From positions 29,545 through 93,544 of the forward strand of contig JARIGK010000002.1 in NCBI GenBank assembly GCA_029288895.1: a stretch of DNA of 64,000 nt, in the 5' to 3' direction. The notes under the pieces are model-generated. The model was not told the origin of the DNA and made no database searches. It saw nothing but the letters and a program-made list of their open reading frames with translations. Shown piece by piece: positions 7,097 to 59,940 of this stretch (positions within the stretch are counted from its first letter, which is position 1; every line of letters starts with the position of its first letter). The translations under genes were made by a program, and so were the position numbers. This DNA comes from Candidatus Adlerbacteria bacterium. GTDB taxonomy: Bacteria > Patescibacteriota > Minisyncoccia > Phycocordibacterales > SBAW01.

Positions 7097-7903
7097 TTGA
7101 GCGACCTAGCGTCTATGCTTCTCAGTCGGGAAGCTTTCGACGTCCTGAAGGACGTGTTTGTTGCCGAGATTGGCGACAAAACCATGATGGTAACCTTGGG
7201 CCTTGCCGAGGTGTTCGCCATCCGACTCGTGCTTGCGGGCGTCACGCCCGCTTGCTTCGTGGTCCCGGCCGTCGGCGTCCTTATCGGTATCGGCCTGAAA
7301 GGGATCATTCCTATTGCTGCGCTGAACTATAGCTGCGCCGTCCTCTTCCTGGGGCTGGCCTGGTGGTCTATCAAAGAAGGCCAAGAGGACGGCGAGGAGG
7401 ACGAAGAAGAGAAACCGCTCTCGGAATGGTTCTTCATCCGCGCCTTCCAGATTTTCCTCCGCACGCTGAACCAGCTGACCCATTGGCTCAAGCACAAGGC
7501 GCGGCATAGCGGAGGGTGGGCAGTCGCCCTTGCCTTCACCATCTTCTCCATCGCCGAGATGGCGGACCGGACGCAGTTGGTCACGATTACCAAGACGGTC
7601 GAAGGCTCGAACTGGGTCACCGATCTGGTGGCCTCGGGCCTCGGCCTGCTGTTCGCAAACGTGGCGGCGCTGATCATCTTCTACTTCGCCCGTTCGCTGT
7701 TGAAACGACGGGTTCTGATGTACGCTGCTGCCACGCTCTTCCTGCTCTCGGCGGCCCGGATTATCCTCCAGGGCTGGGGCTATGACCCATCATGGTATCT
7801 GCTGGCGTCGGTTTTCTTTGCCTTGTTGGCCACCTACCCTATCGGGTCTCGGGTGTTCAATTTCCCAACAGGCCCTGAAAAGCCAAAACAGATCTACGCC
7901 TAA
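7097..7903 (+). CDS. UPF0016/GDT1/TMEM165-family cation (Ca2+/Mn2+ : H+) transporter-like membrane protein. The gene is high-GC and probably foreign.
   Basis: Two E-x-G-D-(K/R)-T repeats (AEIGDKTMM and AEMADRTQL) separated by an acidic loop (EDGEEDEEE). It may start with TTG at 7097 (SD GGAGG) or with ATG at 7115. Confidence 0.7.
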   Translation: MSDLASMLLSREAFDVLKDVFVAEIGDKTMMVTLGLAEVFAIRLVLAGVTPACFVVPAVGVLIGIGLKGIIPIAALNYSCAVLFLGLAWWSIKEGQEDGEEDEEEKPLSEWFFIRAFQIFLRTLNQLTHWLKHKARHSGGWAVALAFTIFSIAEMADRTQLVTITKTVEGSNWVTDLVASGLGLLFANVAALIIFYFARSLLKRRVLMYAAATLFLLSAARIILQGWGYDPSWYLLASVFFALLATYPIGSRVFNFPTGPEKPKQIYA

Positions 7904-18498: not shown

Positions 18499-19800
18499 TT
18501 AGTGCGCGTTTTGCGCCAAGCCTTGTGCGTACTGCTGCCACCAGGTACCTGCTGAGGGGCCGCCATTGCAGTAGCCATCGCTTTCTCCTGGGGTTTTGAC
18601 CCACAAGTAGGCGTCAACAAGTGCGTTGCCCGTTGATGTGGTTGGGGCTTGGCCAATTGCGCGGCCAGATGGGTTGCACCAGTCGCCGTTTGAACCATTG
18701 CCGTTGCGGCTTGTGTCGATAATGAAGTGCGATGTTTTACCAATTTTCTGCTGGAGGGCTGCGCTAATCTGCGAGCCGTACGATGCTTCGCTTGCAGTGC
18801 CGTCGAAGTTGGAGACATTCAACGAGAAGCCATCCGCTTGCGCAATATTTGCAGCTGCGAGACGGCCTGCCATAACAGATGGGTCGTTCCATCCAGAGTG
18901 GCCGGCATCAAGGTAGACCTTTGTGTTTCCGTTTTGCTTCAAGATCTGCACCGCTTGGCTCAAAAGCGAGTAGCGCGTGCTTTGGTCGCCTGAGGAGAGG
19001 CACGTGATATTTGCGAGCGCGTCAGGCTCCAAGATAACGGTTGCAGGAGATGAGCCAATGCCTGAAGCAAGAGAGCGGATCCAATTTATATAGTTTGATT
19101 GGCTTGTGCCGCCCGATGAATACCCACCGCAGTCGCGGCCTGGGATGTCGTAGGCAACCATCACGGCATTTTTACCTCCTGCGTTTGCGACAAGCGAGTG
19201 GGCATCGTTTTGGATATTCGAATTCCAATCACCAAACCATGTTGCAACTGGTTGCGATGCCAATGCTTGGATGCCGCTCTTCGCTACGCTTGTATTCGGG
19301 TTTACATAGAAACCGTTTGTAGAGAATTGAACAGGGCTCTGCAGCGTAAAAGTCTGCGTAGGCTGAACAGCAGTTACTGTTGGAAACGATGCTGGCGCCA
19401 CAGTTGCTGGTTGGTCGATGTAGATCTGCTCAGACTGCTGAGCGATAACCGCGCCGTTTTTGCGCTCGATAAAGTTAATAGTATATGGGCCTGAGCCGCG
19501 CCAGTTCCATCCGGAGACATTTACGCTTGCCTCTTTGTGCTGGTAGTCGGTGTAGTTGTTGTCCATGGGGACCCACTGCCCGCCGTCGACTTGCCAAAAC
19601 ATGTCGTACTGGGAGACGTCGGTGCCCGGCACCATTGCCTTAAATGGCTGCGTGCCGGTAACATGGGCGCCATTGGTTGGCCACCAGACGTTAACGTCCG
19701 ACGCAGCAGTCACAAGCGGCAAGCCATAGAGATAGATTGATAACGCTATTGTTAAGAGTGTGAGAACTCGCACCTTCTTCACGTTATGTACAGTTTTCAT
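18499..19800 (-). CDS. Secreted glycoside hydrolase family 6 (cellulase/cellobiohydrolase-like) with a novel ~95-aa N-terminal module.
   Basis: Signal peptide MKTVHNVKKVRVLTLLTIALSIYLYGLPLVTAAS. GH6 motifs ILEPDALANI and DAYLWVKTPGESDG. The ORF track extends to 19905; the internal start at 19800 is preferred because of the signal peptide. Confidence 0.75.
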   Translation of the reverse strand: MKTVHNVKKVRVLTLLTIALSIYLYGLPLVTAASDVNVWWPTNGAHVTGTQPFKAMVPGTDVSQYDMFWQVDGGQWVPMDNNYTDYQHKEASVNVSGWNWRGSGPYTINFIERKNGAVIAQQSEQIYIDQPATVAPASFPTVTAVQPTQTFTLQSPVQFSTNGFYVNPNTSVAKSGIQALASQPVATWFGDWNSNIQNDAHSLVANAGGKNAVMVAYDIPGRDCGGYSSGGTSQSNYINWIRSLASGIGSSPATVILEPDALANITCLSSGDQSTRYSLLSQAVQILKQNGNTKVYLDAGHSGWNDPSVMAGRLAAANIAQADGFSLNVSNFDGTASEASYGSQISAALQQKIGKTSHFIIDTSRNGNGSNGDWCNPSGRAIGQAPTTSTGNALVDAYLWVKTPGESDGYCNGGPSAGTWWQQYAQGLAQNAH

Positions 19801-19977
19801 AACTTCACGAGTATAAAGATCTCGTTCCCTTGACCGCAACGCACTTCCTATCCCACAGTCAAAAATTTTCAAATCGTTGTTCTCTGTAATGCTCAAAAAC
19901 TTCATGAACCAACATGACGTTTTAACAATAGCGCATTAGCAATTCATCATCTGTGGATGAGATTTTCTTGCGTTATA

Positions 19978-20012
19978 AAAAATCCCCTGAGCGGGGATTT
20001 TTCTTGTATGTT
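19978..20012 (-). terminator. Rho-independent terminator (AAAATCCCC-TGAGC-GGGGATTTT) for the minus gene ending at 20021.
   Basis: 9-bp GC-rich stem followed by TTTTTTAT on the minus strand. Confidence 0.55.
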
Positions 20013-20020
20013 CTCTTTTT

Positions 20021-20407
20021 TTACTGCGCGCGCTTCCCTGCTTCCATGATAGGGATGTTCGCTTCTGTGGGCACGTAGATGACAGAGCTTTCTGGGCGCT
20101 CTTCCATCATTTTGATCCACTGCCATTTTAGGTAGAGATCGTGCTGTGTAAGCGTTTTGCCTATTGTTTCTATCTGGGTAGCCACAGCTTCTGCCTCGAT
20201 AATTGCGGCTTGCTTGTTGATGGTTGCAGCGTCCAAACGGCCTTGGGCTTTCGACACCTGAATTTGCTGTTCCTTATGAGCCTGCTGCAAATCAGCCTCG
20301 CCCTGCTTTTGCTGTGCCCATACGCGCCACACCGGTGCGCCAAACAACGCCCACAAAATAAGAACGGCGACTAACACTACCGGCCAAAATACAATTGAAA
20401 TATCCAT
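20021..20407 (-). CDS. Hypothetical membrane-anchored coiled-coil protein (128 aa).
   Basis: N-terminal TM (ISIVFWPVVLVAVLILWALFGA), then a Q/A-rich coiled coil. No family recognised. Confidence 0.45.
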   Translation of the reverse strand: MDISIVFWPVVLVAVLILWALFGAPVWRVWAQQKQGEADLQQAHKEQQIQVSKAQGRLDAATINKQAAIIEAEAVATQIETIGKTLTQHDLYLKWQWIKMMEERPESSVIYVPTEANIPIMEAGKRAQ

Positions 20408-20510
20408 ATAAAGAGTGAGTAATTATTGGTACGGCTCTATTGTACCAAACTGCTAATTTTTAAAACAAAAAACTCCCTGAAGGGAGCCTTTTGAATTGAA
20501 TGTGAGAGAT

Positions 20511-20924
20511 TTAGCGCTTCGACCACTGCTTGCGCTTGCGAGCTTTGACGAGGCCTGGCTTCTTGCGCTCCTTTGCACGTGGGTCGCGCTTGAGGAAGCC
20601 TTCCTTTTTAAGGGTGCCGCGGAGGTTTTTGTCGTAGTCGATGAGTGCGCGCGAGATTGCGTGGCGAACTGCTGTTGCCTGGCCAGCGATACCGCCGCCC
20701 GAAACAACAACTGTTACATCAAACTGCGTGCCCAATGCCACTTTGAGGAATGCCTCAAGTGCCACCGTGCGGAGTGCGTCGGTATCAAAATACTTGTTGA
20801 TGTCCTTGCCGTTGATGACAACAGAAGTCTTTGCCGACGGCGTGATGCGTGCGCGTGCAATAGCTGTCTTGCGGCGGCCGACTGCTTCAATGTATTTTTC
20901 TGCTGTTTTTGTTGCGGTTGCCAT
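20511..20924 (-). CDS. rpsI: 30S ribosomal protein S9.
   Basis: C-terminal GGGIAGQATAVRHAISRAL...KRDPRAKERKKPG..KARKR..SKR is diagnostic. Confidence 0.9.
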   Translation of the reverse strand: MATATKTAEKYIEAVGRRKTAIARARITPSAKTSVVINGKDINKYFDTDALRTVALEAFLKVALGTQFDVTVVVSGGGIAGQATAVRHAISRALIDYDKNLRGTLKKEGFLKRDPRAKERKKPGLVKARKRKQWSKR

Positions 20925-20925
20925 A

Positions 20926-21285
20926 TTACTTTTCTATCGTGAGGTTCTTGATGCGCTTTGCCTGGAGGCGGTTCTTCGGCAACATGCCGAGGACTGCGCG
21001 GCGGATAGCTTCTTCCTGGCCACGGCGCGCCGTGAGCATAGCATAGCTTTCCTCCTTCTGCCCACCCGGGTAGCCCGAGTAGCGGACGTAGGTCTTGTCG
21101 CCTTCCTTTGCGCCCGAAATTTTTACTTTCGAGGCATTGATGATGCTGACCTTTTCATCAGCAACAAGGTTCTTTGCGAACGATGCCGAGTGTTTGCCGA
21201 GCAGCGCCTTAGCCGCAGCTGATGCTACGCGTCCAAGAGTTTTGCCGTTTGCGTCGATGGTAATCATAAATTTATACGAACTCAA
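20926..21285 (-). CDS. rplM: 50S ribosomal protein L13.
   Basis: IDANGKTLGRVAS...LLGKH...YSGYPGG motifs. The start overlaps the 3' end of rplQ by about 14 nt. Confidence 0.9.
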   Translation of the reverse strand: MSSYKFMITIDANGKTLGRVASAAAKALLGKHSASFAKNLVADEKVSIINASKVKISGAKEGDKTYVRYSGYPGGQKEESYAMLTARRGQEEAIRRAVLGMLPKNRLQAKRIKNLTIEK

Positions 21286-55558: not shown

Positions 55559-55569
55559 AACTTGTTTTG

Positions 55570-55640
55570 TGGACCCGGCGAGAATCGAACTCGCGCCTCT
55601 GCAATGCGAATGCAGCGTTGTACCACTTAACTACGGGCCC
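55570..55640 (-). tRNA. tRNA-Ala (anticodon CGC).
   Basis: Manual fold: acceptor GGGCCCG/CGGGUCC with G3:U70 (the Ala identity element), anticodon loop UUCGCAU and T-arm GGUUCGAUUCC. CCA is not encoded. Confidence 0.8.
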
Positions 55641-55670
55641 ATCGCTCAATATATAGAGCGGGAAACTGGT

Positions 55671-55739
55671 CGGGATGCCGAGAATCGAACTCGGGTCTTA
55701 CGCACCCGAAGCGTACATAATGCCACTATACGACATCCC
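55671..55739 (-). tRNA. tRNA-Pro (anticodon CGG).
   Basis: Manual fold: 5' GGGATGT..., anticodon stem-loop UACGC-UUCGGGU-GCGUA and T-arm GAGUUCGAUUCUC. Confidence 0.7.
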
Positions 55740-55788
55740 GTACTCCTCAAACCGCTCCGCGCATATCGGGTTTGCATCGCGAAGCGTG

Positions 55789-55862
55789 TGCACCTTGTAG
55801 GGCTCGAACCTACGACCTCACCCGTGTGAAGGGTGCGCTCTAGCCAACTGAGCTAAAGGTGC
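55789..55862 (-). tRNA. tRNA-Val (anticodon CAC).
   Basis: Manual fold: D-arm AGCUCAGUUGGCUAGAGC, anticodon loop UUCACAC and T-arm GGUUCGAGCCC. Confidence 0.8.
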
Positions 55863-56335: not shown

Positions 56336-56372
56336 CACCTCCGCCACCTCGGCGGAGTTTTCTTTTACTGCG
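56336..56372 (+). terminator. Rho-independent terminator CTCCGCC-ACCTC-GGCGGAG plus TTTTCTTTT.
   Basis: 7-bp GC stem and a U-tract immediately after the third tiny ORF. Confidence 0.55.
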
Positions 56373-58101
56373 TGTAGATATTTATTGATTTGGTGGAGAT
56401 TGCAGTACCGCTTGAGTTCGTGCTGGTAAAGGTTATGGTGTACGGCCCTGCACCCTTCCAGTGCCAACCACTAAGGTCGACGAGCGCTTCTTTGTGTGGA
56501 TAGTCTTGCGAGCTGTTGTACATCTGCACGCGCGCACCTCCGTCGACAGACCAGTACATGGTGTATTGCGAGACATCAAGTCCACTGACCATTGCCTTAA
56601 ATGGTTGCGTGCCAGTTACATGCGAGCCGTCGGATGGCCACCAAATGTTGGTTACGCTGCTGCCCGATGGTGGCGGTGTGCTTGGCGGAGGCTGCGAGCC
56701 TGCACTCACCGTTATAGTTGCAGCGCTGTCGTTCCAGCTGTAGGTCTTGGACCAGTCACCCGTAAAGACACCAATCTTAAACGTGTAGGTGCCCGCACTA
56801 TTTGGCATAAAGCTTCCGCCAAACGTTTTTGTTTGCCCTTGGCTAAAGTTTTGCCCACCTTGGAAGGTTTGATACACGCGTGTGCCGCCTTGGTACACCT
56901 CCAAGTCAACCAGTGTGCCGCTCGTGCTGCCCGCAGTCTCTGTAACATTTGCCGAAATTTGCACTGTCTGCCCCACAGTTGCAGTGGCTGGCGCACCGGC
57001 GCTTGTACTAAACGTTACCGAACTTGGCGGCGGGTTTGATGGCGTCGTGCCACTAAGCCACCACTGTTTAAGCGTCTGCTCTGCCGGTTTGTTTTGCGGC
57101 GTGTAGTCAGTGTCGCCAGCTCCGCCCGCATTTGGATTGCTCTTCCACCACCACATATCGACACCTGTCATGTACGAATATTTGTTCCAGTAATCAAACA
57201 GCGCGGTATAGTCATTTATCTGTTCTTGCGAATTATAGTTGCCGCTCATGCCAGAGTCCCAGGGGAAGCTGTGAGCATTGTCGACGCTTCTATATCCAAT
57301 TTCGGTAAAGATAATTGGCTTTGTTGGATACTTTTGGTGGATTGGGTTGATGTCGTAATCGTTCATCCCCTGCCAGTCGCTTTCAAGGGAGGCAACCGAA
57401 CCGTCGCCAAACAATCCGTAGTAGCCCGACACGCCGATCAAATCGAGCTTATCCCAAAAGCCAATATTTGGAAGTTCTGCGCCCCACGCGGTGTGATCTT
57501 GCTCGCCACGGTTGGCGCTATAGCTAAGCGCACCGCTATATACCGCGCGTACATTTGCGATCATCGTATTCCATCGCTGCGTGTTGTCACTATTTGTATT
57601 GGCCGACGCCATACTAATGAGTTCGGCACCCAAGACAAACTGCTCCACTCCATACTGCTGGCCCAGCCTGCCGTAGTACACGAGCGTGTTGCCATAGTTT
57701 CGGTACCACGTGTCGCGATCGCCCGGGTTAATCACGGCGCGCCACTCGCCCGAATATGTTTCCAAATAGAGCGCAATACTTACGTGGAGCCCAATCGAGT
57801 GCGCGTATTGGATGGCAGAAATAAGCGACGAGTCGGACGGCGTGTTCCATCCGCGGCCAATGTCAGTACTGCCCGAGTTCGATTGATAGTACGGGATGAT
57901 CAGGTTTACATAGTTCGCACCATCGGCTTTTAAATTTCGCAGCGATTGCTGGAACGAGGCCGAACTATAATCTTCTGTCCCTTGCGGGATGATGCTAAAA
58001 CTTTTCTGCCAACTGCTTACCGCCGCCTCTGCGTGTGGCACATATCCAAATTGCCCAATAAAAAGACCCACTAGTGCAACTATTGAAATAGCCTTTTTCA
58101 T
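56365..58101 (-). CDS. Secreted multidomain glycoside hydrolase. It has an N-terminal TIM-barrel GH-A-clan-like catalytic domain (mannanase/glucanase-like), a middle Ig/CBM-like domain, and a C-terminal ~95-aa module shared with the GH6 at 18499..19800.
   Basis: Signal peptide MKKAISIVALVGLFIGQFGYVPHAEA, candidate nucleophile motif IIFTEIGY, and Thr/Pro linkers. The C-terminus reads WWPSDGSHVTGTQPFKAMVSGLDVSQY...GPYTITF. Exact GH family is not resolved. Confidence 0.65.
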   Translation of the reverse strand: MKKAISIVALVGLFIGQFGYVPHAEAAVSSWQKSFSIIPQGTEDYSSASFQQSLRNLKADGANYVNLIIPYYQSNSGSTDIGRGWNTPSDSSLISAIQYAHSIGLHVSIALYLETYSGEWRAVINPGDRDTWYRNYGNTLVYYGRLGQQYGVEQFVLGAELISMASANTNSDNTQRWNTMIANVRAVYSGALSYSANRGEQDHTAWGAELPNIGFWDKLDLIGVSGYYGLFGDGSVASLESDWQGMNDYDINPIHQKYPTKPIIFTEIGYRSVDNAHSFPWDSGMSGNYNSQEQINDYTALFDYWNKYSYMTGVDMWWWKSNPNAGGAGDTDYTPQNKPAEQTLKQWWLSGTTPSNPPPSSVTFSTSAGAPATATVGQTVQISANVTETAGSTSGTLVDLEVYQGGTRVYQTFQGGQNFSQGQTKTFGGSFMPNSAGTYTFKIGVFTGDWSKTYSWNDSAATITVSAGSQPPPSTPPPSGSSVTNIWWPSDGSHVTGTQPFKAMVSGLDVSQYTMYWSVDGGARVQMYNSSQDYPHKEALVDLSGWHWKGAGPYTITFTSTNSSGTAISTKSINIYTQ

Positions 58102-58331
58102 TCCACAACCCTATCTCATCGGCACTGTAGCAGAGGTGAATTAAGAAGAGTTTATGAAACAAGCAATTGCTATTTTTGACAAATAGAAATTTTATGCTAG
58201 ATTACTACCGCTGTTCTTTATATATCAGATCGGACCTCCGACCCAGTAAATACAACGTTTATTGGCCCGGAGGTCTGATGACCTGTCCTGCTTTTGGCGT
58301 CCGCCACAAGCATCTCAAGGAGAGACTGCAA

Positions 58332-59306
58332 ATGAAGCATCGTATCCTGGCCTTCGCGGCCGTCGCCATGGTGGCGGGATTCGCTCCCCTCACCTCGGCT
58401 TTCGCCCAGAACCAGTCGGTCGGTTGCCCGGCCGGCGGCACCTGTCTGATGACAGGCGGTGAAAAGGGCGACTACTACAAGTACTTCGGCAAACCCGTTG
58501 CCGAAGTCTTGGCGAAGGTCGCCTGGGACGACGTGACCGTGTCGACGTCCAAGGGAACGCCGGACAACATGACGTCCGTGGCCGCCAACCCGGGCAACTA
58601 TGGCCTCGGCCAGGCCAACGTCGTCGCCAAACTGATCAACACCGAGCCGTACAAGGGCAAGGTGCAGATCGTCAACACCCAGTCGATCGGCCAGGAGCTC
58701 GTGTTTCTTGTCGTCTCGCCGAAGCTCTACGAGCGGGCGTCGTTCTATGGCACGATCGCCAACAACGCGGCCAACGTGAAGTTCGTGATGCCGGGCAAGG
58801 ATACTGGCCCCGGCGTGACGTTCGACCAGCTCACCGAGCTCGATCCGCGGCTGCAGAAGGCCAAGAGCGTCGAGCGCGTCAATTCGGTGGACGATGCCAT
58901 CGACGTGGTGGCCAGCGGCCAGGCGCAGGCGACTCTCGTGGTCCAGTTCGCCAACCCGAACAACGATCGCTTCAAGATCATCAAGGAGAAGGGCCTCCGG
59001 ATCGTCCCGGTGCGCCATCTCCCGATGCTCAGCGTGAAGCTGCCGGGCGGCCAGTCGGCCTTCGTGGCCTGCGGCGGCCAGGAAGTCGGCGACAAGGAGC
59101 CCACCTCGGGCGTCTGCACGCCCATCGTGCTGATGACGGGTGTCGCCAATACGAACCCGAAGATCGCCGATTTGGCGAACGTGCCGAGCGACCAGTTCGC
59201 GCCGAAGGATGTGTCCTTCGCCGCCTTCTGGAAGAAGGCCAAGGCGGCAGCCGCCAAGGCCACGGCCGAGGCAGCAACCTGGGCTAACGAGAAGATCGGC
59301 GGGTAA
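58332..59306 (+). CDS. Secreted periplasmic-type solute-binding protein (TAXI-TRAP/PhnD-like type-2 PBP fold). The gene is high-GC and probably horizontally acquired.
   Basis: AAGGAGAG SD and signal peptide MKHRILAFAAVAMVAGFAPLTSAFA. The GGTCLMTGGEKGDYYKYFG motif resembles the TAXI TGGTGG.YY motif. GC is above 60 %, with GCC/GGC/CTC/CCG codon bias unlike the neighbours. The ORF-track start at 58167 is a spurious extension. Confidence 0.65.
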   Translation: MKHRILAFAAVAMVAGFAPLTSAFAQNQSVGCPAGGTCLMTGGEKGDYYKYFGKPVAEVLAKVAWDDVTVSTSKGTPDNMTSVAANPGNYGLGQANVVAKLINTEPYKGKVQIVNTQSIGQELVFLVVSPKLYERASFYGTIANNAANVKFVMPGKDTGPGVTFDQLTELDPRLQKAKSVERVNSVDDAIDVVASGQAQATLVVQFANPNNDRFKIIKEKGLRIVPVRHLPMLSVKLPGGQSAFVACGGQEVGDKEPTSGVCTPIVLMTGVANTNPKIADLANVPSDQFAPKDVSFAAFWKKAKAAAAKATAEAATWANEKIGG

Positions 59307-59312
59307 CTCCTC

Positions 59313-59352
59313 TGGTCTGACAGATACCGACCCCCACGCGAGCAATTGCTTG
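59313..59352 (+). terminator. Terminator hairpin CCCCCACGCGAGCAATTGCTTGTGTGGGGG plus TTATTTTTTA.
   Basis: Long GC stem with G-U pairs, then a U-tract after the PBP gene. Confidence 0.5.
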
Positions 59353-59384
59353 TGTGGGGGTTATTTTTTATACAAAATTGCTCA

Positions 59385-59418
59385 AACAAAAAACCTCCCT
59401 AAGGAGGTTTTTTGTTAT
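59385..59418 (-). terminator. Bidirectional hairpin AACCTCC-CTAA-GGAGGTT with U-tracts on both sides, downstream of tRNA-Ala(UGC).
   Basis: 7-bp stem flanked by A6 and T6. Confidence 0.5.
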
Positions 59419-59421
59419 TTG

Positions 59422-59494
59422 TGGACCCTACCGGGATCGAACCGGTCGCCTCCTCATTGCAAATGAGGCGCTCTACCAAATGAGCTAAGGGCCC
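59422..59494 (-). tRNA. tRNA-Ala (anticodon UGC).
   Basis: Manual fold: acceptor with G3:U70, D-arm AGCUCAUUUGGUAGAGC, anticodon loop UUUGCAA and T-arm GGUUCGAUCCC. Confidence 0.85.
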
Positions 59495-59610
59495 GTATAC
59501 GGACGAACCAATAATACAATAGACGCCTAAAAAATGGTAGTCCAGTTGCCCCGTTGACTTTAGAGGCCAATTTGATTGACTGAGACCAGAACAGAACCGA
59601 GGGATATCCG

Positions 59611-59940
59611 ATGGAAAAGTGTCTGTGTTGTATGGTTTCGAAGGGACTCCTCGAAGTGACAGAAGTACCTTTGCAATCGAATAACGTAGTTTGCTTTATG
59701 CATCCAGAGCCGAAGCGGCCAGTCCATGCAGTGGTCATCCTGCGCGACGCCACATCGATGCCAGAGGTCATGCGCACAAAATCCACGTTGCTTATGGAAC
59801 TTGGCATGATTGCGCAAAAGATCATGGCCCAGTTGAAAATGGATCATCCGGGGCTTCGCTTCAGCGTTGTAATAGAAGGAGCGAATCCTGATGTTCATCT
59901 GATGATGAACATTGTTGGGTCAGAAAAGCCGGAGCTGTAA
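59611..59940 (+). CDS. HIT-superfamily-like protein with a degenerate histidine triad (109 aa).
   Basis: N-terminal C-x-C-C..., then VCFMHPEPKRPVHAVVILRD resembling the HIT alpha/beta core. The expected HxHxHxx motif is replaced by DVHLMMN. Confidence 0.45.
   Translation: MEKCLCCMVSKGLLEVTEVPLQSNNVVCFMHPEPKRPVHAVVILRDATSMPEVMRTKSTLLMELGMIAQKIMAQLKMDHPGLRFSVVIEGANPDVHLMMNIVGSEKPEL

Follow-up and report, generated by a model that had tools for sequence, protein, structure and literature searches.

A GC-rich gene for a TAXI-fold binding protein beside tRNA-Ala(UGC) in an Adlerbacteria-like genome

How did a gene of unusually high GC content, encoding a solute-binding protein, come to stand beside a tRNA gene of a Patescibacterium, and what might its product do there? 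The question is raised by a 64-kb stretch (64,000 nucleotides) of a Candidatus Adlerbacteria contig (JARIGK010000002.1, positions 29,545 to 93,544), which is called the window here and to which all coordinates refer unless a related locus is named. The horizontal acquisition of this divergent, partner-less TAXI-fold gene in an Adlerbacteria-like genome is real. We consider it likely that the segment at ~58172-59365 is a horizontally acquired and self-contained TAXI-fold expression cassette, made up of a promoter, a structured leader, the coding sequence and a terminator, and located in a hypervariable stretch by tRNA-Ala(UGC). The gene and the open reading frame (ORF) opposite to it are the following.

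58332..59306, plus strand: coding sequence of the solute-binding protein, 324 amino acids, from the ATG at 58332 to the stop, included, at 59306
58218..59345, minus strand: spurious antisense ORF, 375 amino acids, a mirror of the plus frame rich in GC at third codon positions (GC3)

Position 58167, taken as the start in the original prediction, is merely the TTG start of the maximal ORF. The gene starts at the ATG at 58332, with a Shine-Dalgarno sequence AAGGAG at 58317-58322, 9 nucleotides 5' of it. Its composition was compared with that of the 59 other non-overlapping ORFs of the window with at least 100 amino acids each. The coding sequence has a GC content of 0.641 (GC1 0.600, GC2 0.437, GC3 0.886), and the comparison ORFs have 0.519 +/- 0.027 for GC and 0.582 +/- 0.051 for GC3, with a GC3 maximum of 0.764, giving z = 4.5 for GC and z = 6.0 for GC3. 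The high GC and the GC3 bias that had been claimed relative to neighbours of ~50% GC were therefore recovered (64.1% and 88.6%, z = 6). Codon usage also departs clearly from the 59 ORFs. No ORF lies farther from the window background than this gene, at a distance of 0.362 compared with 0.180 +/- 0.051 for the others (z 3.5); for example, AAG is used at 92% versus 41% in the background, GCC at 64% versus 18%, and ATC at 100% versus 50%. The codon distance to Hyphomicrobiaceae genes is 0.115, against 0.362 to the window's own genes. In a 200-nucleotide GC profile, the GC-rich block extends over ~58230-59360 and comprises the coding sequence, a 5' hairpin and a terminator. The long minus-strand ORF is present, and the original prediction was right to call it spurious, as homologues and fold back the plus frame. 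Elsewhere in the window, a GDT1-family cation/proton antiporter gene at 7115-7903 (plus strand) has the second-highest GC3 (0.764; GC 0.587) and is a further candidate for foreign origin.

A native gene could in principle reach a high GC3 through codon selection of its own, such as selection for high expression, and the strong consensus promoter, the good Shine-Dalgarno sequence and the AT-rich flanking non-coding DNA, which is as in the host, are in keeping with such an origin. The ribosomal-protein and ATP-synthase genes of the window, which are putatively highly expressed, have a GC3 of 0.50-0.64 and show no such bias, however, and the distance of 0.115 to Hyphomicrobiaceae genes is smaller than the mean of 0.18 of window genes to their own genome. 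Together with the absence of a copy from the syntenic related loci fetched, and with named family members that are Alphaproteobacteria, these results make a native origin very unlikely.

Relatives of the host were identified from the genes around the locus. The window Ddl is 81-85% identical to Ddl of metagenome-assembled genomes (MAGs) of Candidatus Adlerbacteria, a lineage of the Parcubacteria group of the Patescibacteria, and the gene order UvrC-Ddl-pterin-4a-carbinolamine dehydratase (PCD) is kept in relatives. tRNA-Ala(UGC) was found in 10/10 related loci scanned for tRNAs, and the binding-protein gene is absent from 21/21 related loci fetched. The GC3 departure (z = 6), the Hyphomicrobiaceae-like codons and the lack of a copy in these 21 loci support the proposal of horizontal acquisition made in the original prediction, and the donor would have been a high-GC, alphaproteobacterium-like organism. 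An assembly chimera or contaminant, in which a high-GC piece was spliced into a Patescibacteria contig, is extremely unlikely. The exact protein is on one public contig only and the source is a metagenome-assembled genome, as a chimera would allow, but the 1.1-kb block has host-type syntenic flanks on both sides, so that two precise chimeric joins would be needed. Moreover, a sister cassette, described below, has a promoter and leader homologous to the AT-rich ones of the window, and at least 19 contigs show it in one and the same low-GC setting.

The tRNA genes around the cassette were located with ARAGORN, and a second accessory gene lies between them.

55569-55640, minus strand: tRNA-Ala(CGC)
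55667-55740, minus strand: tRNA-Pro(CGG)
55788-55862, minus strand: tRNA-Val(CAC)
56365-58101, minus strand: secreted GH113 glycoside hydrolase (PF22612, E 6.9e-47), divergent from the binding-protein gene
59421-59494, minus strand: tRNA-Ala(UGC), Rfam tRNA 65.8 bits, 3' end toward the cassette

The cluster of tRNA-Ala(CGC), tRNA-Pro(CGG) and tRNA-Val(CAC) at 55569..55862 forms the far edge of a variable inter-tRNA segment; in relatives this edge is tRNA-Pro(CGG), in some loci together with tRNA-Val(CAC) and tRNA-Ala(CGC). The GH113 gene has a native GC of 0.52 and a C-terminal Ig-like region. It too had no tblastn match in the 21 related loci, so that the variable segment contains two accessory genes with no relation to each other. 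The GC-rich gene had been described as tRNA-bounded. All four tRNAs are there, but the GH113 gene separates the tRNA cluster from the GC-rich gene, so that the tRNA-Ala(UGC) side is the only direct tRNA border. The other flank of tRNA-Ala(UGC) is variable too, since the gene of a HIT-like small protein at 59611-59940 (plus strand), between tRNA-Ala(UGC) and the PCD gene, had no counterpart by tblastn in the related loci; other small ORFs stand there instead.

Related genomes have provided direct evidence on the tRNA hotspot. The sequence of tRNA-Ala(UGC) is the same in 8 genomes save one position, and homology stops directly after it. The distance from tRNA-Ala(UGC) to the next tRNA ranges from ~100 nucleotides (locus L020) through ~0.5-1 kb (L004, L003) to ~5.5 kb (L007, L008), and the cargo after the tRNA is unrelated among relatives, including CopC-type proteins, an F420 ligase and an AdoMet synthetase among others. 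Large serine recombinases with Resolvase and Recombinase domains lie at tRNA-Ala(UGC) in L011 (11701-13110, minus strand) and L014 (18019-19572, plus strand), and the ends of both recombinase coding sequences abut or overlap the tRNA. Because length is variable, cargo is unrelated and recombinases occur at the same tRNA, the locus is a genuine hotspot of integration in this lineage. The hotspot claim of the original prediction holds on these grounds, with a segment of ~0.1-5.5 kb, unrelated cargo and serine recombinases abutting the tRNA in two relatives. An AAA_13/AAA_21 ATPase gene lies ~3 kb from the recombinase of L014, in the same region. A 205-amino-acid ORF of L010 (13351-13968, minus strand; GC 0.61, GC3 0.80; no Pfam match) adjoins tRNA-Ala(UGC) and is a second compositional outlier at the hotspot.

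The 3' border of the cassette carries two hairpins, and a short repeat brackets the cassette.

59329-59362, plus strand: intrinsic terminator of the binding-protein gene, 15-pair stem and T-run
59385-59416, no strand assigned: bidirectional hairpin with A-/T-run flanks and perfect 14-nucleotide arms (inverted-repeat search)
58159-58171 and 59341-59353, no strand assigned: 13-nucleotide repeat ACAAGCAATTGCT around the palindrome AGCAATTGCT, a perfect pair (repeat search)

The terminator ends 58 nucleotides short of the 3' end of tRNA-Ala(UGC). Relatives L003, L005, L006 and L007 have, by inspection, their own hairpin-like inverted repeat after tRNA-Ala(UGC), and for this reason the hairpin at 59385-59416 was assigned to the tRNA, whose minus-strand transcript it most probably ends. 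The two tandem terminators that had been reported therefore exist as hairpins, with the second most likely belonging to tRNA-Ala(UGC) on the minus strand. One copy of the 13-nucleotide repeat is located just 5' of the -35 box and the other in the terminator loop. The chance expectation of such a pair in 4.3 kb is ~0.1 by our own estimate, and the pair may have arisen by chance, serve as an operator or be left over from recombination.

The family to which the protein belongs was defined by successive searches. An indexed search returned just two sequences, the protein itself and another 29% identical to it; a profile of those two gave 79 relatives, and an exhaustive HMMER scan of 1.84 billion cluster representatives gave 388 clusters at E<=0.001. 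Only the protein itself was >50% identical among these representatives, and no family cluster carried a Pfam domain of known function. The gene had been called an orphan, which holds in that it has no partner gene; homologues exist, in a family of ~390 clusters. Named family members come from Hyphomicrobiaceae, Hyphomicrobiales, Filomicrobium and Xanthobacteraceae MAGs. Pfam gave no family for the protein at either E<=0.1 or E<=10, and PF16868 and PF12974, the two families suggested in the original prediction, gave no match. The NCBIfam model TIGR02122 (TRAP_TAXI, where TRAP stands for tripartite ATP-independent periplasmic) matched residues 1-105 at E 1.1e-5 and 24.5 bits, and a distant family member, P0124, just passes PF16868 (28.6 vs 27 bits). 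Searches of the PDB by sequence, with the single protein or the family profile, gave no usable match.

The structure prediction was more informative. An AlphaFold2 model built from 57 family sequences reached a predicted local distance difference test score (pLDDT) of 87.3 and a predicted TM-score (pTM) of 0.84. Solved TAXI proteins ranked first in a Foldseek search with this model, and the predicted two-lobed type II periplasmic-binding fold is nearest to solved TAXI structures. The motif TGGEKGDYY occupies residues 41-49, with T41, G46 and Y48 invariant in the 57-sequence family alignment, and the conserved TGGxxGxY and S-x-G motifs fall where TAXI models match. The model and the motif agree with the type-2 periplasmic-binding fold and TAXI-like motif read from the sequence before. 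Since fold and motif are shared and the curated cut-off was failed, the family is treated as a sister family to TAXI. The protein is best described as a putatively secreted member of this distinct sister family, the named members of which are high-GC Alphaproteobacteria.

The protein has a single hydrophobic segment, and residues 1-30 have low pLDDT. By inspection its N-terminus is of the n-h-c type, reading MKHR, then ILAFAAVAMVAGFAPL, then TSAFA followed by QN.

58332-58406, plus strand, residues 1-25: putative signal peptide, cut between AFA and QN (by inspection)

The product would be exported by means of this Sec-type signal peptide and probably cleaved after AFA25. Cysteines are found at residues 32, 38, 247 and 262, the second pair being invariant in the subfamily. 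A lipoprotein anchor was considered and rejected, because SVGC32 is no lipobox and lies 7 residues past the predicted cleavage site. A C-terminal amphipathic membrane anchor was likewise rejected, as the hydrophobic moment is low. The TAXI-type fold makes small-ligand capture outside the cell the most likely activity of the two-lobed, 'Venus flytrap' protein. By analogy, the ligand is probably an organic acid or amino acid. It could be handed to an unlinked transporter, or the protein may act as a free scavenger or sensor.

Candidate transport partners were sought around the gene. Its neighbours are the F-type ATP synthase operon and the genes of a DUF5667 protein, GH113, the HIT-like protein, PCD, Ddl, UvrC and the UvrA C-terminus. 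The multi-span membrane proteins of the window are glycosyltransferases, an ABC exporter, GDT1 and MgtC, and no TRAP permease or permease dependent on a solute-binding protein was found among the membrane proteins of the 64-kb window. The statement that no permease or ATPase partner is encoded nearby thus stands for both the neighbours and the scanned ORFs of the window. No TRAP gene lies beside the homologues in L001, L024, L026, L028 and L030 either. Copies of the Hyphomicrobiaceae type are found in a housekeeping context with the order dnaB, radA-like, cvpA, X, SDR (L024 5480-10006; L026 7363-9817), and in L024 purF separates cvpA from X. Such a context points to a role independent of any adjoining transporter. 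Other homologues adjoin unrelated genes. Orphan TRAP binding proteins are known, as is a TAXI protein that is paired with GltS and not with TRAP-QM (PMC12344293; PMC11574862).

A protein with a binding-protein fold need not be a transport receptor, and could instead serve as a surface sensor, an adhesin or 'immunogenic protein', or an enzyme built on this fold. Such a role is possible but rather unlikely for the window protein. It would account for the lack of an adjoining permease here and at the five homologues examined, for the housekeeping cvpA-(purF)-X-SDR context of the Hyphomicrobiaceae copies, and for the linkage of the closest subfamily to a small DUF6524 membrane protein and to no transporter. 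A glutamate-specific TAXI protein is reported to shape biofilm matrix assembly and growth of Vibrio cholerae (PMC12718363). However, the solved structures nearest in fold are without exception TAXI receptors that bind ligands, the TGGxxGxY and S-x-G motifs are placed as in TAXI models, and there are documented cases both of TRAP binding proteins that are orphans and of TAXI proteins that have the non-TRAP partner GltS (PMC12344293).

The closest known relatives of the gene have been informative on its history. In a BLASTP search of the retrieved representatives, the closer relatives are P0094, P0095 and P0102, with 47%, 44% and 42% identity. In alignment, the window protein is 47.7% identical to P0094, and the two are sisters in 100% of 300 neighbor-joining bootstraps, both on long branches according to the identity matrix. 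P0094 and P0255 were found in at least 19 contigs from NCBI (GCA_943359535.1), JGI, ENA and Logan, always in the context of the same ~52% GC genome and as an insert between housekeeping genes. In this sister locus, SMC is followed by an insert of hyp309 (minus strand), the binding-protein gene, a DUF6524 gene and an 88-amino-acid ORF, and then by RNase R, S16, KH and TrmD. The sister binding-protein gene has a GC3 of 0.80 versus ~0.55 in the flanks; the DUF6524 gene also has 0.80, and hyp309 has a host-like 0.54. The sister cassette ends in an analogous terminator hairpin with the same ATTTTTTATA tail. The two cassettes occupy unrelated loci, both in ~51-52% GC genomes. No housekeeping gene common to the window and the sister loci was detected by tblastx, and neither the hyp309 nor the DUF6524 gene was found in the window.

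Several observations concern the sister locus and its relatives. In L038 (8848-12087) the binding-protein gene is flanked by the gene of a 309-amino-acid membrane-like protein and by that of a four-helix DUF6524 membrane protein, which has a promoter of its own, and the 189-amino-acid call in this locus carries PF20134. A 151-amino-acid ORF of L031 was tried as a DUF6524 homologue and rejected, the match being not significant for that truncated gene call. L038 also contains RpoB and RpoC Pfam domains in one gene call of at least 2277 amino acids (18643-20954), an apparent rpoB-rpoC fusion. L035 (1-6193) is a 60%-GC contig of 58-99-amino-acid ORFs with one solid PHROG match (phrog_18407, E 2.8e-27). 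It carries hyp301, a binding-protein homologue of 42% identity, an 80-amino-acid ORF and DUF6524, and hyp309 is homologous to the gene beside this copy (25% identity, E 7e-19); L035 may represent the module as carried by a phage. A tblastn search of PLSDB plasmids and INPHARED phages gave no match, and the subfamily search gave two fragments in metagenome contigs and no match in viral contigs.

The timing of transfer was examined at synonymous sites. At residues conserved between the sisters, synonymous agreement was 0.543, compared with 0.518 expected (z 0.6), indicating saturation; by the NG86 method, synonymous divergence (dS) of the pair was 1.14 and nonsynonymous divergence (dN) 0.47. Since synonymous sites are randomised and both genes have a GC3 of 0.80-0.89, most of the divergence took place under a GC-rich regime. 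Two separate and fairly recent transfers, from related high-GC donors already bearing promoter and leader, are the favoured history, and the codon distance of 0.115 to Hyphomicrobiaceae genes fits it. Alternatively, the gene may have been acquired once, long ago, by an ancestor of the window and GCA_943359535.1 lineages, or may have circulated, with its GC-rich codons kept non-neutrally through mRNA or codon-choice selection; high GC3 would then be no sign of a recent event. The fully supported sister relationship, the long branches of both copies, the homologous promoter and leader, and the ~51-52% GC of both genomes all agree with this history. So does hyp309, which is homologous to the L035 neighbour and yet has a GC3 of 0.54, versus 0.80 for the binding-protein and DUF6524 genes. 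Against it, neutral drift should have lowered GC3 to ~0.58 by the time synonymous sites were saturated, and the ribosomal-protein and ATP-synthase genes (GC3 0.50-0.64) show no such codon preference. Closer relatives also lack the gene at the conserved locus, and the two copies stand at unrelated loci. An old acquisition or circulation is accordingly unlikely, though a serious alternative to separate recent transfers.

The region upstream of the gene is shared between the two cassettes, and contains the following elements.

58176-58203, plus strand: promoter-like site of sigma-70 type, TTGACA-16-TGcTAGATT with extended -10; 10/12 matches plus TG in the scan
58209-58331, plus strand: structured 5' leader, also at L031 7876-8003 and L038 9875-10003
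58278-58331, plus strand: in-frame upstream ATG, GGAGG-N4-ATG in the 3' arm of the hairpin, used as the start of the 342-amino-acid NCBI protein

The promoter counterpart in the sister cassette, from the alignment of L031 and L038, reads TTGACA-17-TGCTA(G/A)TTT. The leader consists, in order, of the 5' block GCUGUUCUUU, a hairpin at 58229-58279, the block GGAGGUCUGAUGACCUGUCC at 58269-58288, a second hairpin and AAGGAG. The blocks GCTGTTCTTT, ATCGGACCTCC and CGGAGGTCTGATGACCTGTCC are 100% identical between window and sister leaders, and the hairpin apex and the second hairpin differ between the cassettes by compensatory changes. That the blocks are identical despite saturated synonymous sites points to strong selection on the leader. 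Folding z values versus shuffles were -5.2 to -6.8 in both cassettes. The alignment fold has 34 consensus pairs, 8 of them with both sides changed, and 92% of cells are paired, compared with 26-50% when partners are slid; 0-1/500 shuffles reached the observed values.

AAGGAG is base-paired in the minimum-free-energy fold of the leader. In both leaders the Shine-Dalgarno sequence pairs with a conserved 5' block (CUUU or GUUCUU); the CCU of GACCUGUCC is an additional partner in the window leader. The frame of the upstream ATG reads MTCPAFG... in the window; the corresponding ATG of the sister lineage starts an upstream ORF (uORF) of its own, 11 or 15 codons long and reading MTCPFG... (L031 7949-7984; L038 9948-9995; upstream frames translated by eye). 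Judged from sequence and predicted pairing, the leader probably gates translation: the conserved 5' blocks would pair with the Shine-Dalgarno sequence, and the short upstream frame would start inside the main hairpin. We infer a regulatory role for the leader on this basis. Two other identities of the 5' hairpin were considered and rejected. It has no integron-type core, has no integrase nearby and lies downstream of the conserved promoter, unlike an integron attC site; it lacks a U-run and is conserved together with the promoter, unlike a leftover donor terminator. Rfam 15 gave no match at E<=1 on the leader (58200-58331), and tRNA was the sole Rfam match on 57900-59700. A covariance model of the leader scores 119.8 bits on the window leader and found no other copy in the window and 32 loci (~494 kb), and the exact leader motif had no match in JGI metagenome contigs or IMG/VR.

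A broader reading of the sister pair is that promoter, leader and protein form a portable module, repeatedly passed from high-GC alphaproteobacterium-like organisms to Patescibacteria, and that the leader is a new class of riboregulator. This reading is decidedly doubtful. If it were true, the donors could be the physical hosts of the episymbionts, and the gene would mark which host and symbiont are paired. The leader would then join Shine-Dalgarno sequestration with the MTCP(A)FG uORF and might sense the ligand of the protein itself.

Several results weigh against the acquired TAXI-fold cassette as we have described it. Segment 55863-59420 holds two genes only, those for GH113 and for the binding protein, and no integrase. 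A search of the window with the last 14 nucleotides of the tRNA at <=2 mismatches, and with the last 22 at <=3, gave no further copy of its 3' end, and the repeat search gave no convincing border repeat in the window other than the candidate 13-nucleotide pair. The integrase remnants and direct repeats of the tRNA 3' end anticipated in the original prediction are therefore lacking from the window, and borders with no integrase, att repeat or tRNA fragment leave the integration mechanism unsupported. With regard to history, the saturated synonymous sites of the sister copy show that it was not one simple recent event, and the ~52% GC of the sister genome, the saturated sites and the neighbour of host-like GC all complicate a single recent transfer. 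The exact gene is on one contig only in the public collection. With regard to the protein, TIGR02122 has a cut-off of 84.35 bits, which was missed at 24.5 bits, there is no Pfam match, and the best sequence match of the family profile to a solved TAXI protein has E 0.066. The host cell is presumably monoderm, and this, the lack of a lipobox and the weakly amphipathic C-terminal helix leave the retention of a cleaved, soluble protein unexplained. The partner search covered 64 kb of the genome.

The cassette may be compared with known systems. Solved TAXI proteins (VcGluP 8S4J, Thermus 1US4/1US5, VCA0144 9IBP and Ehrlichia 4DDD) are 11-15% identical to the window protein. In contrast to TAXI TRAP systems, the window family misses the curated cut-offs, has no fused TRAP-QM (DctQM-type) gene beside the window gene or its homologues, and carries an extra C-terminal helix, longer and Ala/Lys/Glu-rich in most members; the host of the window protein is also a Patescibacterium. 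In BP0403-GltS of Bordetella pertussis, too, the gene of a TAXI-fold receptor has no TRAP membrane component with it, which sets a precedent for proteins of this kind that serve other carriers or work alone. The dimeric lipoprotein BP0403 has three domains and is translationally coupled to gltS (PMC12344293), whereas the window gene has no adjoining carrier and encodes a single domain with no lipobox. As in tRNA-adjacent islands, deviant cargo lies 3' of a tRNA, is absent in relatives, and has recombinases at the same tRNA elsewhere in the lineage; unlike them, the window has no integrase or tRNA 3'-end repeat, holds one foreign gene, and has a native GH113 neighbour. As in leaders that sequester the Shine-Dalgarno sequence (riboswitches, RNA thermometers and uORF-coupled leaders), the Shine-Dalgarno sequence is paired and a short upstream frame overlaps the sequestering helices, but the window leader matches no Rfam family and is known from two lineages.

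At its core, the case is the familiar one of a single foreign gene next to a tRNA, and it does not overturn current understanding. What is new is a sister copy whose leader, on sequence comparison, is structured and strongly conserved. The retention of high GC3 at saturated synonymous sites provides a useful test case for the dating of transfers by amelioration. The leader itself is a candidate for a new cis-regulatory element, far more conserved than the coding sequence. For the TAXI proteins, the locus adds a divergent TAXI-fold family with no Pfam model or TRAP partner, and widens the picture of TAXI beyond classical TRAP; for the Adlerbacteria, it adds a documented integration hotspot at tRNA-Ala(UGC). 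Patescibacteria have a minimal metabolism and rely on scavenging, so that foreign uptake-related genes such as this one can hint at what is scavenged and possibly at where genes come from.

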